Below, in pieces: positions 1 through 14,691 of a stretch of DNA of 24,254 bases. The DNA comes from a virus. Its lineage: Duplodnaviria; Heunggongvirae; Uroviricota; Caudoviricetes. The stretch covers positions 1 through 24,254 of the IMG/VR virus record IMGVR_UViG_2734482781_000007. One strand, written 5' to 3'. Under the pieces are notes generated by a model, which was not told the DNA's origin, made no database searches, and was given only the letters and a program-made list of their open reading frames with translations. Numbering within the stretch: the first letter of the stretch is position 1; each line of letters starts with the position of its first letter. Position numbers and translations under genes: made by a program.

Positions 1-1032
1 TTATGGGCAATATCTGGACAACTCAGCCACAGGATTAAAGCGCACAGCATCCTGCAGATAATCCGGTGCAAAATGGGCATAAGTCATCGTCTGCTGAATA
101 GTGCTATGCCCAAGTATTCTCTGCAAAGTGATGATATTCCCACCATTAATCATGAAGTGAGTGGAAAAGGTATGCCGCAAAACATGTATCGACTGCCCTT
201 CAGGAAGATCGGGCCTCACCTTTCTGATAGCAGCTCTGACAGCGGCATAACTTGGATAAATTAAACGACCAGTGGCCTTTGTTTTAATCATGCACTCCAG
301 TTCTGACGATATAGGTATAACGCGACGCTTCCCATTTTTGGTTTCCATAAAAATGACTTTGCCGCTAATAACATGCTCCCCCTTGATATTTGCAACCTCA
401 CTCCATCTTCCACCTGTTGCCAGACACAACAAGACAGCTTTTAATTCATCACCAGATAACAACTCCAGTAATCGTGGAATATCCTCATGATACAAATAAG
501 CCATTTCAGGCTGTTTGATATTAAGTTTTTTCACATCATGAAACGGATTAGCCCCAGAATATTCCTCTGCGTCAATTAGTTTTGTGAAGAAACCACTCAT
601 CATTGCGCAATAACGATTAACCGTGGATTGTTTTATTCCGCGGTTAAGCAACAATAACCGATAATTAATTATGTTCTTACGAGTAAGTTGGTCGCTGCGT
701 GTAACATTAATACTTTCAAGATCACTAATGACCGCAGAAATACGCACTCGCTCCATCGCACCGTAAGGATGATTTTTCCCGTGGTATAGCCACCAACAAT
801 CCAGCAACTCCCTCAGCGAGCGCCGTTCTGTTGGCTTATCAACCCAGTCTTTGTCGTGGTAATGCTGCAATACATGACGCTCATACAAAACAGCCTCACC
901 ACGAGTATCAAATCGCCGCCTGAATCTTTTTCCTTCTGATCCAGCTGGCCGCACGTCCACACAGAATTTGCCATTAGCGAGCTTCTTAATCGACATAAGG
1001 AAGCCCTCCAATGAAAACATCATCTTGATCAC
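1..1032 (-). CDS. int: Tyrosine-type site-specific integrase (P2 Int-like)
   Basis: 343-aa ORF with C-terminal catalytic box HVLRHTFSTHFMINGGNIITLQRILGHSTIQQTMTYAHF (R..HxxR..Y); first gene of the leftward operon after the repressor; stop codon at positions 1-3. Start may be one of the internal Met codons near the N-terminus. Confidence 0.9.
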   Translation of the reverse strand: MIKMMFSLEGFLMSIKKLANGKFCVDVRPAGSEGKRFRRRFDTRGEAVLYERHVLQHYHDKDWVDKPTERRSLRELLDCWWLYHGKNHPYGAMERVRISAVISDLESINVTRSDQLTRKNIINYRLLLLNRGIKQSTVNRYCAMMSGFFTKLIDAEEYSGANPFHDVKKLNIKQPEMAYLYHEDIPRLLELLSGDELKAVLLCLATGGRWSEVANIKGEHVISGKVIFMETKNGKRRVIPISSELECMIKTKATGRLIYPSYAAVRAAIRKVRPDLPEGQSIHVLRHTFSTHFMINGGNIITLQRILGHSTIQQTMTYAHFAPDYLQDAVRFNPVAELSRYCP

Positions 1033-5257: not shown

Positions 5258-5394
5258 AGCAGTATCAGGATTTTTTTAGTATGCCGTTCTCACAAAAAAA
5301 CCGCTTGCCATGCCGCAATCAGTCAGGTTACATTTCCGTTGCATCTCATAAAACGGGTGCCGGGTTTCGCAGCCTGCTGATCAACAAAGCGCAC

Positions 5395-5415
5395 AACCGC
5401 GCCAGCGGTTTTTTT
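5395..5415 (+). terminator. Rho-independent terminator-like hairpin (AACCGC-GCCA-GCGGTT followed by TTTTT)
   Basis: 6-bp stem, 4-nt loop, immediate T-run, in the roughly 370-bp non-coding gap after the SPFH cassette. Confidence 0.5.
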
Positions 5416-5597
5416 GTGCGTACCGCATTGCCGCACATTTTTTCGCATCAGAATTATGGTGGGGCGTACGGGGCCGACTTCGGTCGGGCCGGGTTTTCTT
5501 TGTTGACCGGTACTGCGAACCTCGTACGTCTCGCCACCCACAGTTTCGCAGCTCTGGATGGTGAGTATTCAAAACTTACCAACAAAGAGGCCACACC

Positions 5598-6272: not shown

Positions 6273-9095
6273 ATGACGGCAGAGCACATCAGGGACTGGC
6301 AACAACCGCGCCACGCAGTAGGGCGGGAAGGAACGGGGATCCCCGCACCTGAATCCGCGCTTTCTTCCTGGCTGGATGCCTACCGGGCAGAGAACGAGCA
6401 CCGCCAGGAAAAGGCTGATGCGGCGTTCTCCGCCACGCCACTGGGCAATCTGATTAATAAAAGCCTGGACGCACAGGAAAAACAGGACAAAACCATCACG
6501 CTGGCAGGAGACGCCAGAAGACAGGCACGCGGCGCGGTGGATGAAGCCATGGCCTCGCTGCGCCTGCTGCCGTCCTATCTGCGCGATCCGCTTATTCGCC
6601 ACCTCTCCTTCCTGCGCAAAAAACAGGAAGCCGATCGCCGGAAAGGAAAAAAGAACTGGCAGGCTGAACGTTACGCGCACGGAACCCTGCGCAAAATATT
6701 CGAACGTCTGGACTGCACCGACCGTCGCTGGCTGACTCCGGGTTATCGCTCCCTTGCCGGACGTGAACGCCTGGACGATTTGCTGTACCTGCCACAGCTC
6801 AACAAGCACCAGATACAGACGCTGGCCACCATGACGGCGGCGATGTTCAGCAGCACCTTCGAAAAGCTCTGCGATGGCTTTGGCGCGACCGATGGCGAGC
6901 TGACTATGGATATAACGCTGAAGGTGTATCAGATGCTGGCCCGCATGGCGTTACACCTGCACGCCATGCCTCCACATTATGACGCACTGACAACAGACAA
7001 AGACCGGAGGAACGAACCGGACACGGAGCTGCTGCCGGGCGCAATCCTTCGCCTGACCTGTGCGGAATGGTGGAAACGCAAACTGTGGCTGTTACGTTGC
7101 GAGTGGAGAGAAGAACAACTCCGCGCCGCCTGTCTGGTTTCCAGAAAAACATCACCCTATCTGAGCCAGGACGCGTTAAGCGAGTTTCGCGCACAGCGCG
7201 AGAAAACACGCGATTTCCTGAAAAGTTTCATGCTGGAAAATGAAGACGGGTTCACGATTGATCTCGAGACAGTGTATTACGCGGGAGTAAGTAACCCGGT
7301 TCACCGTAAGGCAGAAATGATGGCCACCATGAAGGGGTTGGAACTTCTGGCCGAAGCCCGTGGCGACAAAGCGGTGTTTCTGACTGTCACCTGCCCGTCA
7401 AAATACCACGCCACAACGGAGAACGGTCATCCGAATCCCAAATGGAACGGGGCCACAATGCGCGACTCCAGCGATTACCTGGTTAACACGTTTTTTGCGG
7501 CGGTCCGCAAAAAACTGAACCGCGACGGCCTGCGCTGGTATGGCATCCGCACGGTGGAGCCTCATCATGACGGCACCGTGCACTGGCATATGATGGTCTT
7601 TGCACATCCGGAAGAAATCGACACCATTGTGTCCCATACCCGCGATATTGCCATTCAGGAAGACCGCCACGAGCTGGGCAATGATATTACTCCGCGCTTT
7701 AAGGTGGAGTATGTCGACGGCTCAAAAGGCACGCCAACCAGCTACATCGCCACCTACATCGGAAAGAACCTGGACAGCCGCGCCGTGGATGGCATCGACC
7801 CGAAAACGGGCAAGCCACGCGTGGACCACGAAACCGGAAAATCAATGGCCGAGAGCGTGGAGCGCGCCATCGGCTGGGCGCGCCTTCACCGGGTCCGTCA
7901 GTTCCAGTTCTTTGGCATCCCCTCCCGTCAGGTGTGGCGTGAACTGCGCCGCCTTGCCAGCCAGATGGCACGCAATCCGGAAGGCCCGCAACGGCTGAAA
8001 GATGATGCAATGGATGCGGTACTCGCTGCCGCCGATGCCGGGTGTTTTGCCACCTACATTAAAAAACAGGGTGGCGTGCTTGTTCCACGCAAGGACTACC
8101 TGATTCGCACCGCCTACGACCTCGCAGATGAGCTGAACGATTACGGCGAACAGAGCGTACAGATTTACGGGATCTGGTCACCACTCATCGGGGAATCCTC
8201 CCGTGTGTGCACGCATCCGGATAACTGGAAGCTGGTAAGACGTAAACCGGAAGCGGAAGACAGCGCCCGCGAAAATGGTTTTGACCTTCAGGGCGGCCCT
8301 GCCGACCCTTGGACTCGTGGCAATAACTGTCCCCGTGTACAGGAAACAGACAACAACGGGACAGAACAGCCGGAAGAACGGCCAGCACTGTGGCCGCAGC
8401 TTCCTGACGGCGTTGATGTGGATGAATGGATGCGCTCACTGAAACGGCACGAACGCCGGGCGCTGATGCGTTCGCTTCGTGACAAACAGGCAAAAAACAG
8501 CAGTGATGAAATGCAGAGCTGGACACAGAGCCGCAAACAGCAGCGGCCTTTGCCTGATAACCACGAATTACTCGCTAAAGAATGGCGGGAGTCTGCTGAA
8601 TCTCTCGGCCTGCATATCGGTGAACAACAGATGCAGCACCTGTTACGGGGCGGCAGTCTGTACGTTGACGGCAGCATCATTGCACCGCAGGGATTTGAAA
8701 TTGTACGCAAACCGGATACCCGCCCGGACAGCCGAATCACGCAGCTCTGGCAGCGCCTGAGCCGTAATCACGGCGTAAGCAGCACGGAGATCCGCCATAA
8801 CCCGGTCTCCAGCTATCTGGCACAGCTCGGGGCATCAGACCCCGAAGCCGCCGCACGCCTGGCATCCACACTTCAGCAGGTCCAGAACACCATGAAAACA
8901 CCCGTTACCGTGCTTTCTGACATGCTGCGCGCCATTCGTGACGCGGAGCACGCACAGAGAATCAGAGAAACCACTGAACGCGCCCGCCGCAAAGCAAACC
9001 TGCTGAGGGCTGGCCTGACCAGTGGAAACAAAAAACAGACAGAAACGGGATTCACAAATCCCGTAAATGAGCAAAAAACGCGCCGCGATATATGA
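6273..9095 (+). CDS. A: Replication initiation endonuclease gpA (HUH rolling-circle initiator) with long C-terminal extension
   Basis: 940-aa ORF; HUH-like motif HWHMMVF and tyrosine pair in SYIATYIGKNLD, typical of P2 gpA/phiX174 A-type relaxases; last early gene before the accessory locus. Confidence 0.85.
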   Translation: MTAEHIRDWQQPRHAVGREGTGIPAPESALSSWLDAYRAENEHRQEKADAAFSATPLGNLINKSLDAQEKQDKTITLAGDARRQARGAVDEAMASLRLLPSYLRDPLIRHLSFLRKKQEADRRKGKKNWQAERYAHGTLRKIFERLDCTDRRWLTPGYRSLAGRERLDDLLYLPQLNKHQIQTLATMTAAMFSSTFEKLCDGFGATDGELTMDITLKVYQMLARMALHLHAMPPHYDALTTDKDRRNEPDTELLPGAILRLTCAEWWKRKLWLLRCEWREEQLRAACLVSRKTSPYLSQDALSEFRAQREKTRDFLKSFMLENEDGFTIDLETVYYAGVSNPVHRKAEMMATMKGLELLAEARGDKAVFLTVTCPSKYHATTENGHPNPKWNGATMRDSSDYLVNTFFAAVRKKLNRDGLRWYGIRTVEPHHDGTVHWHMMVFAHPEEIDTIVSHTRDIAIQEDRHELGNDITPRFKVEYVDGSKGTPTSYIATYIGKNLDSRAVDGIDPKTGKPRVDHETGKSMAESVERAIGWARLHRVRQFQFFGIPSRQVWRELRRLASQMARNPEGPQRLKDDAMDAVLAAADAGCFATYIKKQGGVLVPRKDYLIRTAYDLADELNDYGEQSVQIYGIWSPLIGESSRVCTHPDNWKLVRRKPEAEDSARENGFDLQGGPADPWTRGNNCPRVQETDNNGTEQPEERPALWPQLPDGVDVDEWMRSLKRHERRALMRSLRDKQAKNSSDEMQSWTQSRKQQRPLPDNHELLAKEWRESAESLGLHIGEQQMQHLLRGGSLYVDGSIIAPQGFEIVRKPDTRPDSRITQLWQRLSRNHGVSSTEIRHNPVSSYLAQLGASDPEAAARLASTLQQVQNTMKTPVTVLSDMLRAIRDAEHAQRIRETTERARRKANLLRAGLTSGNKKQTETGFTNPVNEQKTRRDI

Positions 9096-9136
9096 AGCGC
9101 GCACAAAACAGGCGAAAGCGGGATTTAAAAATCCCG
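9046..9136. repeat. Two copies of a palindrome-containing 22-bp repeat (CGGGATT-N4-AATCCCG followed by TAAA), 73 bp apart, upstream of parM
   Basis: Copy 1 at 9046-9063 (inside the 3' end of A), copy 2 at 9119-9136 (36 bp before the parM ATG); a GC-rich element GCGCGC..GCGCGC lies between. Confidence 0.6.
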
Positions 9137-9171
9137 TAAACGGTTAATTAACCAACATAAGGAAAATCGAC

Positions 9172-10131
9172 ATGAAAATTTGTATCGACGACGGCTCCAC
9201 CAACATCAAGCTGGCATGGACTGAGAATGGCGAACGCCGCAACGCCATCAGCCCGAACAGCTTCAAGTCGGAATGGTCTGCGCCGTTCGGTGGCATGCAA
9301 CCCGCGAACTACATGCTTGATGGCGTGCGCTATGGTTTTGATCCGGTCAGCGATCGCTTTGTCCAGACGACCGACACGCAATACCAGTACAGCGATGTGA
9401 ATGTAATCGCCATTCATCACGCGCTGGTCAAATCAGGCATCACGCCACAGGAGGTGGATGTGGTTGTCACCCTGCCACTGAGCGAGTATTTCGACACAAA
9501 CGCACAGCCGGACATGGCCAACATCAACCGCAAAAAAGCGAACGTTATGCGCCCGGTGGAGTACCAGAACGGTGAGGCATTCACTATCCGTAACGTGCGG
9601 GTTATGCCTGAATCCATTCCGGCAGGCTTTAAGGCACTGGCTGACATGAGTCCGTTTGAATCCCTGCTGATTGTGGATTTGGGCGGAACCACGCTGGATG
9701 TGGCAAAGGTTCAGGGGCAACTGGCAGGCATCAGCCAGGTATTTTGCGATCCACACGTAGGCGTTTCACTGATGACCGATGCCGTGCTGTCGGTGATGGC
9801 CACCAACGGTATGCGTACCAGCCACCACATCGCCAATACCATTATCGAACATCGCCACGATGAAGCCTGGCTGCGCCAGCACATCCACAATGACGCGCAT
9901 TACGCCAGCCTGGTGGCGGTTATTCGTGAAAAGGAAGAAACACTGAAACAACGCGTGATCCGCGCGCTGGCGGTTTTTTCGGGTTACGGGCGGGTGATGG
10001 TTGTCGGTGGAGGGGCGGAGATTGTGGCACCCGCTATCCGCGAAGCCTGCGGAGTTAATGCGACTTTCATCGCGGACGGGGTGCCACAGTTTGCTCTGGT
10101 TAATGGGCTGTACGCAATGGACAAGGAGTAA
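9172..10131 (+). CDS. parM: ParM/StbA-family actin-like segregation ATPase
   Basis: 319-aa ORF; N-terminus MKICIDDGSTNIKLAW closely parallels plasmid R1 ParM (MLVFIDDGSTNIKLQW as recalled); actin-fold motifs VDLGGTTLDVA and VVGGGAEIV; AAGGA SD 8 nt upstream. Confidence 0.8.
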   Translation: MKICIDDGSTNIKLAWTENGERRNAISPNSFKSEWSAPFGGMQPANYMLDGVRYGFDPVSDRFVQTTDTQYQYSDVNVIAIHHALVKSGITPQEVDVVVTLPLSEYFDTNAQPDMANINRKKANVMRPVEYQNGEAFTIRNVRVMPESIPAGFKALADMSPFESLLIVDLGGTTLDVAKVQGQLAGISQVFCDPHVGVSLMTDAVLSVMATNGMRTSHHIANTIIEHRHDEAWLRQHIHNDAHYASLVAVIREKEETLKQRVIRALAVFSGYGRVMVVGGGAEIVAPAIREACGVNATFIADGVPQFALVNGLYAMDKE

Positions 10132-10135
10132 ACCA

Positions 10136-10447
10136 ATGACGACACCAACCAGACGGATAAGTTTCTATCTGAAGCCCGCCGCCGTCAAGAACGAAGGCGA
10201 AGCATGCGCCTGGCTGGACAGCCTTACACCAGAAGCCCGCAAAAGCGGCCAACGCGTGGCTTTTCTGGCCGGGCTGGCACTTCTGAAAATGAATCCAGCA
10301 GAGGCTTACCGACTGGCTGCATGGGCTGATGATGAAGCGTTATCAGTGACACAAACCAGGACAGAACGCCCCGCATCACAGCCAGTATCAACCGCACAGA
10401 TAACCAGCCAGATGGCCGGAAATATCCGGGCGTTATTTCCCGAATAA
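10136..10447 (+). CDS. parR: ParR-like centromere-binding protein (ribbon-helix-helix type)
   Basis: 103-aa ORF from ATG 10136 (AAGGAG SD; the longer ORF-track reading from 10001 overlaps parM); RRISFYLKPAAV...LDSL...AFLAGLALL parallels R1 ParR as recalled; gene order parM-parR as in R1. Confidence 0.65.
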   Translation: MTTPTRRISFYLKPAAVKNEGEACAWLDSLTPEARKSGQRVAFLAGLALLKMNPAEAYRLAAWADDEALSVTQTRTERPASQPVSTAQITSQMAGNIRALFPE

Positions 10448-10452
10448 CACAA

Positions 10453-10476
10453 CATCAGGGCGAGTTCGCCCTGATG
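10453..10476. terminator. Perfect 10-bp-stem hairpin between convergent parR and the minus-strand cargo gene
   Basis: CATCAGGGCG-AGTT-CGCCCTGATG at 10453-10476; a U-rich tract follows only on the minus-strand transcript side. Confidence 0.5.
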
Positions 10477-10492
10477 CACAAAACATGCAAAA

Positions 10493-11089
10493 TCAGAATT
10501 TAGTATGCAATTTATCTACCAATCGCTTAGCCTCATTAAGCAGTTTTTGGTATTCCCTGCTATCGTTTTCCTGATCTTCATACGCTCGCCGAACACGCCA
10601 TCGAAGAGCAAGGCATTTTAAGTTCCGGTAAAACCTCGGATTACGCTTGCGGCACTCTTCCATATAAGGTTCAAAATGGACATCAAGAAAGATTAAGGTA
10701 GAACCATAAACACGATATAGATACCGCTCATCATACAAACCGTTATTCACGGCATTGGCACAACGCTCCCATTCATTAAAGATGAGCTTTAACGCTTTTG
10801 AACCATCTGTTTGAGAATATTCTTCTTTTCCCCAGTCTGCGATTGGGAAATTGTAGCGGTCCTTGTAGATACGCAGCACTTCAGACCACGCCTCAACTAT
10901 GTCTTTATTGCGTTTGTATGCCGCCTCAAAGTCCAACGAGTTTTTTTCGCGCGACGTCTTTCTTTGATTTCGTATACTAATCACTGCAATAAGCGCCCCT
11001 GCCACCCCCGGGTAGAAGGTAGGGCTGGAGTTCCAGATGTCTGAAAGAAACTTCCATCCACCACAAAGAATAGAAAGCACTAGATCCAT
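10493..11089 (-). CDS. Membrane-anchored hypothetical protein, AT-rich hotspot cargo (candidate phage-defence or exclusion protein)
   Basis: ORF 10493-11098; most likely start is ATG at 11089 (198 aa) because the ORF-track start is TTG. N-terminal hydrophobic segment (DLVLSILCGG...PGVAGALIAVISI), then a roughly 150-aa charged soluble domain with no recognised motif. Base composition visibly more AT-rich than flanking prophage DNA. Confidence 0.6.
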   Translation of the reverse strand: MDLVLSILCGGWKFLSDIWNSSPTFYPGVAGALIAVISIRNQRKTSREKNSLDFEAAYKRNKDIVEAWSEVLRIYKDRYNFPIADWGKEEYSQTDGSKALKLIFNEWERCANAVNNGLYDERYLYRVYGSTLIFLDVHFEPYMEECRKRNPRFYRNLKCLALRWRVRRAYEDQENDSREYQKLLNEAKRLVDKLHTKF

Positions 11090-11098
11090 TATTTTCAA

Positions 11099-11128
11099 CC
11101 ATAAAAAATGGGAGCCAAAGCCCCCATT
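11099..11128 (-). terminator. Intrinsic-terminator-like hairpin plus U-tract on the minus strand, about 10 nt upstream of the cargo gene start
   Basis: Minus-strand RNA AAUGGGGGC-UUUG-GCUCCCAUU followed by UUUUUAU (9-bp stem with one G-U pair). Confidence 0.45.
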
Positions 11129-11157
11129 CTACTGAAACTACTCTAAAAAAACAGGAG

Positions 11158-11202
11158 TTAAACGTCCCAGTTTTCTTCGCTATAGGTGCAGCGTACGGTC
11201 AT
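11158..11202 (-). other. Mini-ORF (14 codons, MTVRCTYSEENWDV) with GGAGA SD, upstream of the hairpin: possible leader peptide
   Basis: Minus-strand ATG at 11202, TAA at 11158-11160; sits 5' of the terminator-like hairpin and the cargo gene. Confidence 0.25.
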
Positions 11203-11443
11203 AGTTAGTCTCCTTTTTTCAATCATTTAAACATCACTAATTTACTTTTAACATGGAGATGGTTTTACAGTTGTCAACCACCTCCCCCAAATCTGTTGGG
11301 GTAAGCTATCACGCCTACCATACACATACAATGATGAGGCTATATCGTGTAGGCACACTGACAAGGATAAGTTCATCTTCTTCGCTGTCTTAATGTGACC
11401 AAATATAGCACATTTGAAGCGATATACATCCTGTAATGATACT

Positions 11444-11469
11444 GCACAATAGTGCACAAATTTGCACAA
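11444..11469. repeat. Three direct GCACAA repeats at exact 10-bp phasing in an AT-rich stretch
   Basis: GCACAA at 11444, 11454 and 11464, followed by a T7 run. Confidence 0.6.
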
Positions 11470-11494
11470 TTTTTTTGAACGACTTTTTGCCCTT

Positions 11495-11535
11495 CCGGCC
11501 CGCGTGGCGGCTGGATCCGTCAAGGATCCGTGCGT
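11495..11535. other. Candidate cos region (uncertain)
   Basis: GCGTGGCGG at 11501-11509 resembles the start of the 19-nt cohesive end of P2/186-type phages as recalled; tandem GGATCCGT repeats at 11513 and 11526; location between accessory locus and Q fits the P2 map. Exact cos not established. Confidence 0.25.
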
Positions 11536-11842
11536 GCACAAAAAAACGCGCTTTTTCTGCGCGCAGGTGACGGGGGAACAGCCCGCGTTTCAGGGGGTAA
11601 ATAGCATTCCCTGAACGATGTCGCAGAGATACAACAGAATGGCTGTATTTCTCACGCTGAGTGTGAAAAAGACGTGAGGGCTTTTGATTTGATGGGGTGA
11701 AAGGTAAGGCCGTCAAAATCGCACTGAGACGGCGAGAACATGCAGTCAACGCGGTGGGATTGCGTAAGAGTCTGACTGTCGATGATGGCAATCAGCAGGA
11801 AAGCATCGTGAAATTATCTGACTGATACAGGAGCTGGAGAGT

Positions 11843-11867
11843 CGGGGCATAAATTTTTTATGCCCCG
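11843..11867. repeat. Perfect inverted repeat with 11-bp arms (CGGGGCATAAA-TTT-TTTATGCCCCG) 27 bp downstream of Q
   Basis: Read directly from the sequence; no flanking U-tract on either strand. Confidence 0.6.
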
Positions 11868-11893
11868 GCGAAGCAGCAGACAAGCGAAGCGCG

Positions 11894-12940
11894 TCAGGAT
11901 GTGGGCTGGGTGTCTAACAGTGCGTAAGGGTTAAAGCGGATCACCTCTTCGCCAAGCCAGTCATTGATGTGCTTCATAGCCTCCATGACGGGCATCAGCT
12001 CGTTAATTGCGTAAACCCGCGCGGCCTTCTCCACATCACCAAACGCACTTTTTTCGCCCGGCATCGCCCCCATCAGTTGCGGCGGAACACGGTGCGCAGC
12101 CAGCACATCATCACGGGATGCCGCCTTAACATTCATGAACTCATCCTTTGCGGTGATCTGCTGGAACGGCAAAATTTGCACCCCCTCTTTGCCCCCGTTG
12201 GGCGCATGGATGAGCACGTTTTTAAACGCGCCACCACCACGTGCACCCTGTAGCGTTTCTTTCAGGGAGTCCATGCTTTCGCGGTTTACCTGCGCTGCAC
12301 CGATGTAGATGATGCACCCGGCGTGGGATCCATTGTCGTAATACAGTTTTCTGAACATGTCCGCCGAATGAGACAGGCTGGCCGAGAGTAATGCGCCAAG
12401 ATATTCCGGCATGCCGTAAATTTCCTGGTTAATATCCGGATTCATCAGGTGGCACACTTTGCCAGGGCGAAACTGGAACGCGTCCTTGCCATCCTGCACA
12501 TACCACCATGATTCAAGATCGCTTCCGCGTCGCATGTATTTCGCCAGTGCGTGCCGTAATTTAAGCGGTTCGCCGAGTATATTGCTTCTAAGCTCAAGGA
12601 ATGCGTTACCGAACACAAACCAGTCCAGCGCCAGCGCCGAGAAATCCTGCCGGGAAAGCAGCGGGTGCGGGATGTAGCAACCGAGTAATACATTGCGCTT
12701 AAAGTAAAGCGCAGACTGATGCCAGGACGTTTGCCGGGCTGCTCTTGCCAGACCGTACCAGTCCACCGGGGTTTCATACCACCGCCCGTTATCAGCACAG
12801 TACATATTGTCCAGCAGGTCATGCCCGGTCAGGCGATAAGGACCATCAAATGTGAATGCACTGAGCGATGATTCTTTCCTGAGCGCATCAGCGAGATCAA
12901 TGCGTGAACTCATGCGCACTTTTTTATTTTTTCTGCTCAT
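11894..12940 (-). CDS. Q: Portal protein gpQ
   Basis: 348-aa ORF, leftward, overlapping the P stop by one base; size and sequence consistent with P2 Q; first gene next to the cos region as in P2. Confidence 0.85.
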   Translation of the reverse strand: MSRKNKKVRMSSRIDLADALRKESSLSAFTFDGPYRLTGHDLLDNMYCADNGRWYETPVDWYGLARAARQTSWHQSALYFKRNVLLGCYIPHPLLSRQDFSALALDWFVFGNAFLELRSNILGEPLKLRHALAKYMRRGSDLESWWYVQDGKDAFQFRPGKVCHLMNPDINQEIYGMPEYLGALLSASLSHSADMFRKLYYDNGSHAGCIIYIGAAQVNRESMDSLKETLQGARGGGAFKNVLIHAPNGGKEGVQILPFQQITAKDEFMNVKAASRDDVLAAHRVPPQLMGAMPGEKSAFGDVEKAARVYAINELMPVMEAMKHINDWLGEEVIRFNPYALLDTQPTS

Positions 12941-14691
12941 CAGAACTCCATAACCGTGAAACGCTCGTTTTCTCCTTCGCCGCCAATCGGTTCGTTAATG
13001 ACAGCAAGCATGGTTGCCCACGCAAGGTCGCCGTGGCTGATCCCCCTCGCGCGGTCCGTTTCGTAAGTGATAAAGCCGCCCGGTGTTTTCACCTTACGCA
13101 CGGCGTTAAAGGCCGCGACCAGCTCGCGTTCGGCGCGATCGTATTCCCACCGTCCGGCACGCATTATTTGCAGCATTTTCAGTACCAGCGACCGTTTGGA
13201 TGACAGCGTGAAGGTGTACGGAATAGCAGCAGGGAAAAACCGCTTCACTATCTGATAAACAGCCTCCCCGTTCCCGCCCGTCACATCAATGCCGATGTGT
13301 TCCACGTTGTAGCGACGCGTGAACTCTTCAATGACTCTGGCCTGTTCTTCAAACTCCAGCCCCTGAACGCGTCGTGTCTCCACCGTTCGAAAACGGCCAC
13401 CAGGAACAGCCGGAGGAACCACCACGGACACAGCGCCGCTGTCGCCGTTGCCACTGCTGCCGTTTGCGTCATACCCAATCCATACCGGACGATTCCCCAT
13501 CGGGCGGGGAGCAAAAGGTTTCCAGTCTTTCCAGTCGTCGTATCCGTCAACACCGCAGCCAATCAGGATATTCAGGTTAAACGCCGATTCCCCTTCGCGA
13601 ACAAACTCACACATATAGAGATTGAGGAACTCGTCTTCGGTGTTTTCATCACGAATTTCATCAATATCGGTGTGTTTCCAGCCGTGATTAACCACATCTT
13701 CCAGCGTGACAATTTGCCGCCACGTCCGGTCAGGGCAGATAAGCCCGTTATGCAGCGTTTTCCAGTCCACAGAAAAACGCTGGCGTTTATGCGTGGCCTT
13801 TTTCTCGTTCCAGCGGTCGCCGTTCCAGTAGGCGTATGCCTCGTGCGTTTCGGTGGATGGCGTGGAGAAGTAGGTGCGCCGCAGTCCGCTGAGGGTTGCC
13901 ATAGCGCCAGCCACCTTGCGCAGTTCAGCAAAGCGACTGACCCAGAAGAATTCATCAAAATAAAAATTGCCCGTATAGGACTGTGCCGACGCAGCAGAAG
14001 TGCCGAGAAAATGCAGCTCTGCGCCGTTGGAGAGGATGATTTTATCGCCCCCTTTCAGCTCCACATCAACTTCAGCCGCGGCCTTCTGAATAATGCTTTT
14101 AAACTGGAACGCCTGACGACGCGACGCAGACAAAAAAATCTGGTTACGCTGGTAAGGTTGCGCCACATCGTCACGCAGCGCCATCAGCAGAGCTTCCTGT
14201 GCAAAATACCAGGTCGCCCCAATCTGTCGGGATTTCAGGATCATCCTGTTACGTATCCCTGCTTCCCTGCAAAGGGTCAGGGAGTCAAACCAGCCCCGCT
14301 GATGCCACTCCAGCCTGCTGATGATTTTTTCCCGCAGTGCGGCAATCTGTTCCGGCGTGAAATGATTTTTGAGTTTTTTCGCCCGGCCTTTCTTTCCTGC
14401 GGCCATCACATCCTGCTGGCCATCATGCAGCTTTTTAAGCTGCCGGGTCAGCAGGTCTATTTCCTTAAAGTCACCGCCTGTTTTATTCTGTTTTTCAGTA
14501 AGCTGGATGAGGCGCGCATCGATGGACTGCGTGACACGCTGCACGGGTGGCGTTTCATCCCACTGGTCACGTTTTTTCCACGCATAAATCGTGTTCGGGT
14601 TTATTCCCATCAGACGTGATATTTCTGCGGGCGGATAACCCTGCCAGTAAAGTTGCCGCGCACGCTGGCGCACAAAAGCGTCCTGAATCAT
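12940..14691 (-). CDS. P: Terminase large (ATPase) subunit gpP
   Basis: 583-aa ORF with N-terminal HTH-like segment (MIQDAFVRQRARQLYWQGYPPAEISRLMGINPNTIYAWKKRDQWDE); size, strand and position upstream of the portal match P2 P; GGGGGAG SD. Confidence 0.85.
   Translation of the reverse strand: MIQDAFVRQRARQLYWQGYPPAEISRLMGINPNTIYAWKKRDQWDETPPVQRVTQSIDARLIQLTEKQNKTGGDFKEIDLLTRQLKKLHDGQQDVMAAGKKGRAKKLKNHFTPEQIAALREKIISRLEWHQRGWFDSLTLCREAGIRNRMILKSRQIGATWYFAQEALLMALRDDVAQPYQRNQIFLSASRRQAFQFKSIIQKAAAEVDVELKGGDKIILSNGAELHFLGTSAASAQSYTGNFYFDEFFWVSRFAELRKVAGAMATLSGLRRTYFSTPSTETHEAYAYWNGDRWNEKKATHKRQRFSVDWKTLHNGLICPDRTWRQIVTLEDVVNHGWKHTDIDEIRDENTEDEFLNLYMCEFVREGESAFNLNILIGCGVDGYDDWKDWKPFAPRPMGNRPVWIGYDANGSSGNGDSGAVSVVVPPAVPGGRFRTVETRRVQGLEFEEQARVIEEFTRRYNVEHIGIDVTGGNGEAVYQIVKRFFPAAIPYTFTLSSKRSLVLKMLQIMRAGRWEYDRAERELVAAFNAVRKVKTPGGFITYETDRARGISHGDLAWATMLAVINEPIGGEGENERFTVMEF

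Follow-up and report, generated by a model that had tools for sequence, protein, structure and literature searches.

What does a very short open reading frame (ORF), followed at once by a transcription terminator, do immediately upstream of a gene for an uncharacterised, predicted membrane protein? The question is raised by IMG/VR virus record IMGVR_UViG_2734482781_000007, a stretch of 24,254 nucleotides (the whole of which is referred to here as the window) that represents a P2-like (P88/Xuanwuvirus-like) prophage and carries on its minus strand a cargo gene for a DUF4760 protein (Pfam PF15956). A reading of the window made from its letters alone (the sequence-only reading) had noticed the mini-ORF and the hairpin upstream of this gene, and had proposed either regulated read-through, as in leader-peptide attenuation, or insulation of the gene from late P-Q transcription together with a promoter overlapping the hairpin. 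Comparison with DUF4760 loci from other genomes shows, as far as conserved sequence can, that the order of promoter(s), strong Shine-Dalgarno (SD) sequence, micro-ORF, strong Rho-independent terminator and DUF4760 gene with a weak ribosome-binding site (RBS) is a conserved, self-contained module that travels with DUF4760. The reading that we favour, tentatively and at a little less than an even chance, is that the terminator is a ratio-setter that gives an excess of peptide over DUF4760, and that the peptide is a functional partner (inhibitor or ligand) of the DUF4760 protein.

The micro-ORF and terminator upstream of DUF4760 genes

DUF4760 loci were drawn from viral contigs, metagenomes, species genomes (3 loci), individual assemblies, a remote-clade scan and deposited phages; 66 loci include upstream DNA, and three loci that are cut at the gene start are uninformative. 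The sample covers about 35 independent lineages, all Gammaproteobacteria or their phages, out of the 1307 clusters (at 50% identity) that make up the family, and it spans Enterobacterales, Vibrio, Shewanella, Halomonas, marine metagenomes and a Pseudomonas phage, with DUF4760 identity ranging from 100% to ~20%. All 66 loci have a mini-ORF of 10-24 codons that follows a good SD and encodes the core [ED]-E-x-(EG)-W/Y-[GD], and a strong hairpin with a U run lies 3′ of the mini-ORF, 12-35 nt past its stop codon, in 65 of the 66. Both the 14-codon minus-strand ORF with its SD and the hairpin with its U tract, as picked out by the sequence-only reading, are therefore real elements with counterparts throughout the sample (coordinates and products are given in Table 1). 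The only locus that lacks the hairpin is L073 (1451-1500; a remote DUF4760 from a metagenome), in which the peptide MRIHEEDWGFY is kept and the mini-ORF stop lies 17 nt before the DUF4760 ATG.

The two flanks of the core vary in length across the mini-ORF peptides. The Halomonas leader (L058), ~130 nt upstream of the gene at 2501, contains the core twice in tandem (MSHYVYF-DEDWGVY-DEDWGVY). The variant cores REEDEGWW, REENEGWS and REEYEGI, from two Vibrio loci (L075, L077) and Pseudomonas phage zjk6 (L080), have the aromatic residue shifted by two positions or replaced by Tyr and retain Arg-Glu-Glu and Gly, and they help to define the minimal motif.

The mini-ORF is, on comparative grounds, translated, and its peptide is what selection conserves, because codons vary synonymously, substitutions are in excess at third positions, the SD is strong and nucleotide similarity outside the ORF is absent. 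The 38 unique ORF sequences encode 33 distinct peptides. The first core Glu is encoded by GAA in 35 of them (GAG in 2, and GAC in 1), the second by GAA in 17 and GAG in 21, and the core Trp by TGG in 38/38, followed by Gly (GGC 9, GGT 10, GGA 1) or Asp (GAC 12, GAT 4). Substitutions at codon positions 1, 2 and 3 number 44:79:172 over 42 pairs of related ORFs, and beyond the ORF core and the hairpin nucleotide similarity is lost between distant loci. The SD:anti-SD duplex of the window mini-ORF amounts to -8.7 kcal/mol, as against -2.2 kcal/mol for DUF4760, whose own SD is weak or absent; the family means are -7.3 and -1.8 kcal/mol, respectively, with the mini-ORF having the stronger duplex in 31/32 loci. 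An in-frame ATG further upstream (11226) would give a 22-aa product and lacks an SD. The mini-ORF SD and the DUF4760 start each have a copy of a 16-nt direct repeat before them (11092-11107 and 11216-11231; minus strand TTTAAATGATTGAAAA and TTTTTATGGTTGAAAA).

A short ORF and a terminator before a gene are a known kind of arrangement; the family itself, its invariant core and its strict linkage to DUF4760 appear, from the comparisons made, to be new, and the literature searched did not contain them. ORFs of 10-20 codons are still missed by annotation, as here in RefSeq or GenBank records: among 15 cassette-bearing E. coli genomes none has the mini-ORF annotated (14 have no feature there, and 1 has only the DUF4760 coding sequence (CDS)), and neither do the records of phage E8498 and phage zjk6. 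The leader has no match in Rfam at the gathering score, the best sub-threshold hit being L20_leader with 21.5 bits versus 58.7. A pattern scan of viral contigs for the same leader before other cargo was discarded as a lead, with true leaders upstream of DUF4760 only and four chance matches inside unrelated ORFs.

The terminator hairpin of the window, of 10-11 bp, is present in both the minimum-free-energy and the centroid structure of the minus-strand transcript of 11080-11250. Terminator scanning gave 11 pairs (A-U and G-U extensions included), 5 of them G-C, and a loop of 4; its core is formed by the arms AAUGGGGGC (11128-11120) and GCUCCCAUU (11115-11107), whose pairs include one G-U. Folded by itself the hairpin has -14.8 kcal/mol and is followed by six T, and equivalent hairpins of -11 to -20.5 kcal/mol occur in 32/32 representative loci. 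Terminator-like sites in the region number 15, compared with 5.0 +/- 2.3 in shuffles. When 15 enteric leaders were aligned, the stem was paired in 95% of cells and 4 of its 11 pairs had changed on both sides, which exceeds both shuffled and slid controls (0-2 of 500 shuffles reach the observed values), and family-wide the 41 distinct hairpins, with 26 different 7-nt stem cores, are all paired. As judged by this covariation, the comparison shows that the hairpin is under selection as a structure. Recurring upstream pseudo-peptides such as 'GSHFLW' are this hairpin read as protein.

The terminator 3′ arm and U tract (11095-11115) also form a 9-10 nt perfect complement (21 nt at 76%) to 10765-10785, the codons of FNEWER, which is the most conserved DUF4760 motif and lies ~310 nt downstream in the same mRNA; the 5′ arm GAAUGGGGGC mimics GAAUGGGAGC of these codons. 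The FNEWER codons are the site of the best arm-to-CDS duplex (-17.5 kcal/mol in the window) for the window itself and for L005, L007, L008 and L039; this match is weaker in L009 and in the marine loci L003/L049, and is not seen in the remaining groups. Long-range pairing of this kind was rejected as a general feature, the best match being on those codons in ~10/32 loci only.

Predicted promoters, read-through and the terminator as a possible switch

The ATG at 11089, rather than the TTG at 11098 given by the ORF lister, was chosen as the cargo start because homologues begin MDLV/MTEL. The U tract ends 13 nt before this ATG, so that the closeness of hairpin and gene claimed by the sequence-only reading holds with a corrected distance (about 10 nt had been given). 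Across all loci the gap between hairpin and DUF4760 start is 10-44 nt. As had been argued for the window, no promoter fits into such a gap, and expression of DUF4760 by read-through of the terminator is therefore supported by the arrangement of the sequence.

Two promoter-like elements, P1 (distal) and P2 (proximal), lie upstream of the mini-ORF (Table 1), and we infer from their sequence and recurrence that they are the promoters of its transcript. The P1 block TTGTnT-N17-TAnnTT-AC is kept upstream of the mini-ORF in the enteric groups, in differing genomic contexts. A P2-like arrangement (TTGAAA or TTGATT, N17, TATGTT) is present in L008, L009 and L028, with TTGAAA-N17-TATGTT in the lambdoid-borne copies, and marine members have TTTACT-N17-TATACT ~40 nt before the mini-ORF. 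A strict consensus promoter scan of 9000-13000 called no promoter, P1 and P2 included. Two further elements were noted on the minus strand: a -10-like TATGGT (11098-11103) directly 3′ of the U tract, which is without a -35 and limited to the closest relatives, and an extended -10-like TGcTATATT further upstream in the cassette (11402-11410).

The first of these bears on the proposal that the hairpin stops incoming transcription and that DUF4760 is expressed, possibly leaderless, from a promoter overlapping the hairpin, with the mini-ORF as a separate gene. TATGGT matches the -10 consensus at 4/6 positions and lies 9 nt before the SD-less ATG, the closest groups have TATGGT or CATGGT, and a mobile cassette would be shielded from outside transcription if a terminator stood at its entry. 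However, the hexamer has no TG extension, a G-rich stem stands where its -35 should be, and it is not kept beyond groups A and B, whereas the hairpin is universal and shows compensatory change as in RNA; in several distant members the terminator is followed by a normal SD, so that these are not leaderless. Insulation would moreover leave the strict linkage of the EE-x-W ORF to DUF4760 unexplained. We consider this proposal very improbable, and the overlapping promoter suggested by the sequence-only reading comes down to this weak, clade-limited hexamer.

Insulation from P-Q fared no better as the main role of the hairpin. Cassette bounds were obtained by megablast against phages and 5426 complete E. 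coli genomes. Backbone homology, which covers window 11442-11950 and is common to 1154 E. coli genomes, starts again left of ~10480, and the stretch between ~10480 and 11442 is found whole in only 15/5426 of the genomes; the cassette was placed at ~10480-11442 because backbone homology breaks there and the intervening stretch is whole in these 15 genomes only. E. coli RM8082 and A36 are examples of its carriers. P-Q insulation was rejected as the main role of the hairpin because the homology boundaries put it in the mobile cassette and not in the backbone; it enters lambdoid prophages, islands and satellites together with the cassette. The phage backbone already has two hairpins of its own after Q and before cos (11867-11843; 11564-11546 followed by T7).

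The terminator could still be a switch operated by translation of the mini-ORF, as in trpL, hisL, pheL and pyrL. Like them, the leader consists of an SD and an ORF of ~14 codons, and an intrinsic terminator directly precedes the gene under control, which has no promoter of its own. By eye the window is trp-like, in that CUCCUGUUUU can pair with the EENW codons (GAAAACUGGGA) and also with the 5′ arm of the terminator (GAAUGGGGG). A classical 1:2, 2:3, 3:4 attenuator was rejected: one compensatory change was seen between the window and L028, yet family-wide pair counts and the duplex and masking tests fail. In 15 relatives the candidate anti-antiterminator (65% paired) and antiterminator (62%) helices are no better than shuffles or slid partners. 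Duplexes of the terminator 5′ arm with ORF plus spacer (-8.9 kcal/mol in the window, z -0.65) reach z < -2 in only 3/32 loci, complementarity of the 5′ untranslated region (UTR) to the terminator arms shows no excess over shuffles (mean z -0.11 and -0.22), and cognate ORF-terminator pairs (-9.98) are not preferred over non-cognate pairs (-10.16).

Ribosome-mask folding, in which the footprint of a ribosome at the stop or Trp codon is masked in the nascent RNA and the probability of the 5′ arm being engaged is read out, was run with a trpL sequence as the positive control. This control switches on ribosome masking (0.17 to 0.70), and no switch was found across the DUF4760 family, where the means are 0.49, 0.52 and 0.58. 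There is no run of codons for a sensed amino acid in the mini-ORF, which has a single Trp codon and two Glu codons; it is the amino-acid sequence that is conserved instead. In the trpL type, mutually exclusive hairpins are combined with runs of regulatory codons and the peptide is otherwise free, whereas in the DUF4760 leaders conservation covers the peptide core and does not extend to any alternative hairpin. A ribosome terminating at the mini-ORF stop is, given the general size of its footprint, too far away to reach the stem. The distance from Trp to hairpin varies (an estimate from the sequences, untabulated), as does the number of residues after Trp, which was counted from the sequences as 1 to ~13. 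Judged by RNA structure, the terminator appears to be unconditional, because the family tests found no conserved competing structure and the stop is too far from the stem. What stands of the attenuation originally proposed is read-through, for which the lack of room for a promoter and the promoter-like elements further upstream speak; the classical mechanism, for want of a conserved antiterminator, does not.

The peptide as a proposed partner of DUF4760 and competing roles for the leader

Under the ratio-setting mechanism that we favour, most transcripts would end at ~11103 and encode the micropeptide only, and a small, fixed read-through fraction would encode DUF4760, which would leave the cell with far more peptide than membrane protein. 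In the simplest case the peptide would be a short-lived inhibitor or ligand, acting with or against DUF4760, and a halt of transcription or translation, for example on phage attack, would change DUF4760 activity. The hairpin would then be a ratio-setting attenuator, neither a switch nor a P-Q insulator. Precedents for a terminator that fixes stoichiometry in this way are the type III toxin-antitoxin operons, such as toxI-toxN (PMC5086642), and mccA-mccB (PMC4231749). The peptide is favoured as a partner because L073 keeps it without the terminator, because the core is duplicated in Halomonas and because a fixed core is combined with free flanks, which is the pattern of a short linear motif.

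Several points weigh against this mechanism. In the cytoplasm, free peptides of 10-16 residues usually undergo rapid degradation, and few are known to act in trans. Such short ORFs before a terminator are typically cis-acting leaders, and the combination of acidic residues and Trp in the core is reminiscent of nascent-chain arrest motifs such as the DEED cluster of MifM or the Trp of TnaC and SecM. No natural fusion of the peptide to DUF4760 was found among 241 family proteins. In the window, CUCCUGUUUU, just 3′ of the mini-ORF stop, can pair with the EENW codons as well as with the 5′ arm of the terminator, and the mask values of this leader (0.36 free, 0.54 with the ribosome at the stop and 0.73 with Trp in the A site) are weakly trp-like. 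The evidence is all comparative and computational, with predicted transcript ends and promoters, and the ~35 lineages, all gammaproteobacterial or their phages, stand for 1307 clusters.

Part of this applies directly to a cis-acting sensory leader, in which the EE-x-W chain would stall or destabilise the ribosome under some condition and raise read-through or DUF4760 translation; a small molecule, loss of Mg2+ or of other ions, tRNA damage, translation inhibitors or phage takeover are proposed triggers. Size of the mini-ORF, strong SD and a place just upstream of a terminator are typical of leader peptides, and the core EE-x-W-[GD], found in 33 distinct peptides, places conserved residues near the C-terminus as in the arrest peptides TnaC, SecM, MifM, MgtL and ErmCL, which have them near the peptidyl-transferase end. 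The acidic cluster near the N-terminus would fit intrinsic destabilisation of the ribosome and resembles the MifM DEED and the MgtL acidic motif, the window mask values show the tendency just mentioned, and a GUUCU-type segment directly 3′ of the stop recurs in several enteric groups. Against these, the antiterminator and anti-antiterminator helices are unconserved, there is neither excess complementarity to ORF, spacer or 5′ UTR nor a cognate preference, and masking switches trpL and not the family. The 12-35 nt between stop and hairpin are too long for direct occlusion, the variable number of residues after Trp makes arrest at the stop codon unlikely, and L073 keeps the peptide though the terminator is missing. 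A precedent for a toxin gene under a stress-sensing upstream ORF (uORF) is toiL-topAI (PMC12121999), and the likeness lies in a short upstream ORF whose translation controls a downstream, sometimes toxic, gene. Known cases act via refolding of RNA around the downstream RBS or via Rho access, whereas the DUF4760 leaders end in an intrinsic terminator that looks unconditional, is free of competing structures and varies in its geometry. A sensory leader is the main rival to the ratio-setting mechanism, and we regard it as a possibility, though a doubtful one.

The peptide might alternatively be a substrate or precursor that is modified, exported or assembled by DUF4760, in the style of ribosomally synthesised and post-translationally modified peptide (RiPP), pqqA or mccA systems, with the terminator supplying an excess of precursor mRNA. 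The order of genes is that of mccA-mccB, where a very short peptide ORF is separated from its partner gene by a Rho-independent terminator and the abundant short transcript is essential for the product (Zukher et al. 2014, PMC4231749). There, upstream RNA attenuates the terminator and ribosome binding restores it (PMC4231749). A short, well-translated ORF, an intergenic terminator and an abundant short plus a minor read-through transcript (predicted in the case of DUF4760) would set the peptide:protein ratio in both systems, the invariant Glu and Trp could be sites of modification, and DUF4760 is predicted to be membrane-anchored. MccA, however, is a peptide of 7 residues on which an adenylating enzyme acts, whereas the DUF4760 protein is neither MccB-like nor a match to a peptide-modifying protein. 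In the loci examined the pair travels without further genes for biosynthesis, export or immunity, and the mcc-style upstream complementarity that weakens the terminator was not found, the 5′ UTR of the leader and the mini-ORF having no excess complementarity to either terminator arm. A precursor role is on balance improbable.

An RNA rather than a peptide would be the functional product if the short terminated transcript served as a type III- or type I-like RNA antitoxin or small RNA (sRNA) and the ORF were incidental. Promoter, short RNA, Rho-independent terminator and downstream protein gene are the defining layout of type III toxin-antitoxin systems (toxIN, cptIN, tenpIN), in which one promoter, an upstream antidote gene, a terminator and an effector reached by read-through are carried on mobile elements and the terminator is believed to ensure that antidote is in surplus (PMC5086642). 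The DUF4760 locus shares this order of elements and its mobile setting. An RNA product would also fit the finding that, in some groups, the FNEWER codons in the DUF4760 mRNA are complementary to the 3′ arm of the terminator. In type III systems, however, a repetitive RNA is processed by the toxin, a ToxN/AbiQ-type endoribonuclease, whereas the DUF4760 leader is selected as a peptide, has no repeats and precedes a predicted membrane protein modelled as a helical bundle and unrelated to ToxN. Between promoter and terminator there are no tandem repeats (Tandem Repeats Finder (TRF) finds only a 10-nt x3 array at 11439-11470, in the upstream backbone DNA), no Rfam family matches at the gathering score or at E <= 10, and the arm-to-CDS match is confined to the minority of loci given above. 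Nucleotides outside the ORF core and hairpin are unconserved, and substitutions track codon positions, amino acids being kept through synonymous change. An RNA product is the least probable of the roles considered, with hardly any weight left to it.

The EE-x-W micropeptide and DUF4760 might more broadly form a two-component mobile-element system, with the peptide as antidote or trigger of a membrane effector, or a ribosome-borne nascent-chain stress sensor, a conjecture that we think rather unlikely to hold as it stands. If the antidote version were true, the peptide would be the shortest proteinaceous antitoxin known, held in a terminator-set excess and lost within minutes on phage shut-off; if the sensor version were true, the EE-x-W chain would couple translation stress to expression of the effector. 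The leader would accordingly add a peptide-based member to the operons that fix the stoichiometry of antidote or precursor to partner by an internal terminator, or a new family of arrest peptides. Prophages, satellites and islands widely carry the uncharacterised DUF4760 as cargo, in slots where anti-phage genes accumulate, and among the sampled loci with upstream DNA it is never alone but accompanied by the unannotated, peptide-selected micro-ORF (66/66) and a terminator (65/66). The micro-ORF would be the missing partner gene in functional studies of DUF4760 and would explain why the annotated DUF4760 ORF cloned alone might be toxic or inactive, and the leader offers a simple test system of four or five point mutants and a reporter.

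The DUF4760 protein, its cassette and the surrounding prophage

The cargo protein matches PF15956 with 86 bits (cut-off 25; E 3.6e-24) as its sole Pfam match and belongs to PHROG 2284, to which no function is assigned there. Hydrophobic N-terminal helices are followed by a helical cytoplasmic domain, and the AlphaFold2 (AF2) model (pLDDT 88) is an all-helical bundle; the protein is, by this model, a membrane-anchored membrane protein. The basic WRVRR, YKR and SREKN surfaces of the cytoplasmic domain are candidate sites for binding of the peptide. A search of PADLOC-DB 2.0 gave no defence-protein match at E <= 0.01, and the literature searched gave no paper on function, with one incidental paper for DUF4760 and none for PF15956. 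The top match of an exhaustive profile search was P0082 (425 aa), a tandem double DUF4760 in which each copy has its own hydrophobic N-terminal segment.

Table 1 Features of the window and mini-ORF products of other DUF4760 loci (L numbers denote individual loci)
Feature	Position	Strand	Remarks
Shine-Dalgarno AGGAG of mini-ORF	11210-11214	-	7 nt before ATG; read from sequence
Mini-ORF, 14 codons + TAA	11158-11202	-	product MTVRCTYSEENWDV; conserved core S-E-E-N-W-D; ATG 11202-11200, TAA 11160-11158
Intrinsic terminator	11103-11130	-	stem-loop 11130-11105, loop UUUG, U tract 11108-11103
Cargo gene, DUF4760 protein, 198 aa	10493-11089	-	Pfam PF15956, start set by homologues
P1, distal promoter-like	11303-11331	-	-35 TTGTAT 11331-11326, 17-nt spacer ending TGa, -10 TAGCTT 11308-11303; predicted start ~11296
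P2, proximal promoter-like	11250-11277	-	-35 TTGACA 11277-11272, 16-nt spacer, -10 CATGTT 11255-11250; predicted start ~11243
Terminator 3′ of DUF4760 stop	10452-10477	-	perfect 11-bp palindrome, common to convergent parR-like gene; cassette left edge
Integrase	1-1032	-	
Replication protein A	6273-9095	+	
ParM/ParR-like partition pair	9172-10447	+	
Portal Q	11894-12940	-	
Terminase P	12940-14691	-	
Mini-ORF product, L008			MLKRHIFNEENWDV
Mini-ORF product, L029 (Klebsiella)			MKNRFNEENWDV
Mini-ORF product, L014			MTRFVKIVNEENWGF
Mini-ORF product, L018			MKKIYREEDWGVFISK
Mini-ORF product, L002			MKTFREEDWGLS
Mini-ORF product, L039			MKIKFQSISEEDWLV
Mini-ORF product, L003 (Colwellia)			MKQFKKILNEELWD
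Mini-ORF product, L004 (Pseudoalteromonas)			MLISKHNPEEEKWT
Mini-ORF product, L056 (Shewanella)			MIKKIYNEEDWGLPS
Mini-ORF product, L058 (Halomonas)			MSHYVYFDEDWGVYDEDWGVY
Mini-ORF product, L079 (P2-like Vibrio phage E8498)			MMKKTYQEEDWGFDIKS
Mini-ORF product, L077 (Vibrio)			MYREENEGWS
Mini-ORF product, L075 (Vibrio)			MNLYPEKFREEDEGWW
Mini-ORF product, L078			MNRIHREEDWI
Mini-ORF product, L080 (Pseudomonas phage zjk6; DUF4760 20% identical)			MAIKREPLLVAVVVREEYEGI

The neighbourhoods of DUF4760 differ between loci. In the window and in phage E8498 the gene occupies the P2 cos-proximal slot, in L028 it lies in a lambdoid Q-to-lysis interval, in L059 it adjoins integrase and gpA in a satellite-like element, in L062 it stands beside a restriction-modification, phosphoribosyltransferase (PRTase) and ORC/Cdc6-like cluster, and in L077 it adjoins a CI-like repressor. 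These contexts are compatible with an accessory or defence cargo. In the window the cassette lies just beyond cos, a variable slot of the P2-like prophage, with the P884B11 record beginning at window 11488. Minus-strand ORFs at 11248-11541 and 11390-11791 were rejected as real genes; they are without a Pfam match and span backbone and cos DNA. The leader of the enteric-group locus L024 is missing from complete E. coli genomes, and a metagenome contig, Ga0129315_1000629 (L036), has a DUF4760 protein and leader 100% identical to those of the window.

The array at 11439-11470 consists of three 10-nt direct repeats (minus strand TTGTGCAaat / TTGTGCActa / TTGTGCAgta), ~20-50 nt from the cos end (~11488). 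Situated at the edge of backbone homology, it may be a binding array for terminase or a host factor, or a recombination boundary of the cargo slot.

On the other side of the slot, between gene A and the cargo, are a ParM gene (StbA_N plus ParM C-terminal domain; 9172-10131, plus strand) and a ParR/StbB-like gene (10136-10447, plus strand), a pair that is also present in phage P88 and many E. coli prophages and suggests, from its similarity, a plasmid-like maintenance or stabilisation function for this P2-like prophage. The early region of the prophage contains two plus-strand Rfam matches above their gathering scores, isrK at 5341-5415 (66.4 bits) and C4 antisense RNA at 5452-5541 (77.8 bits).

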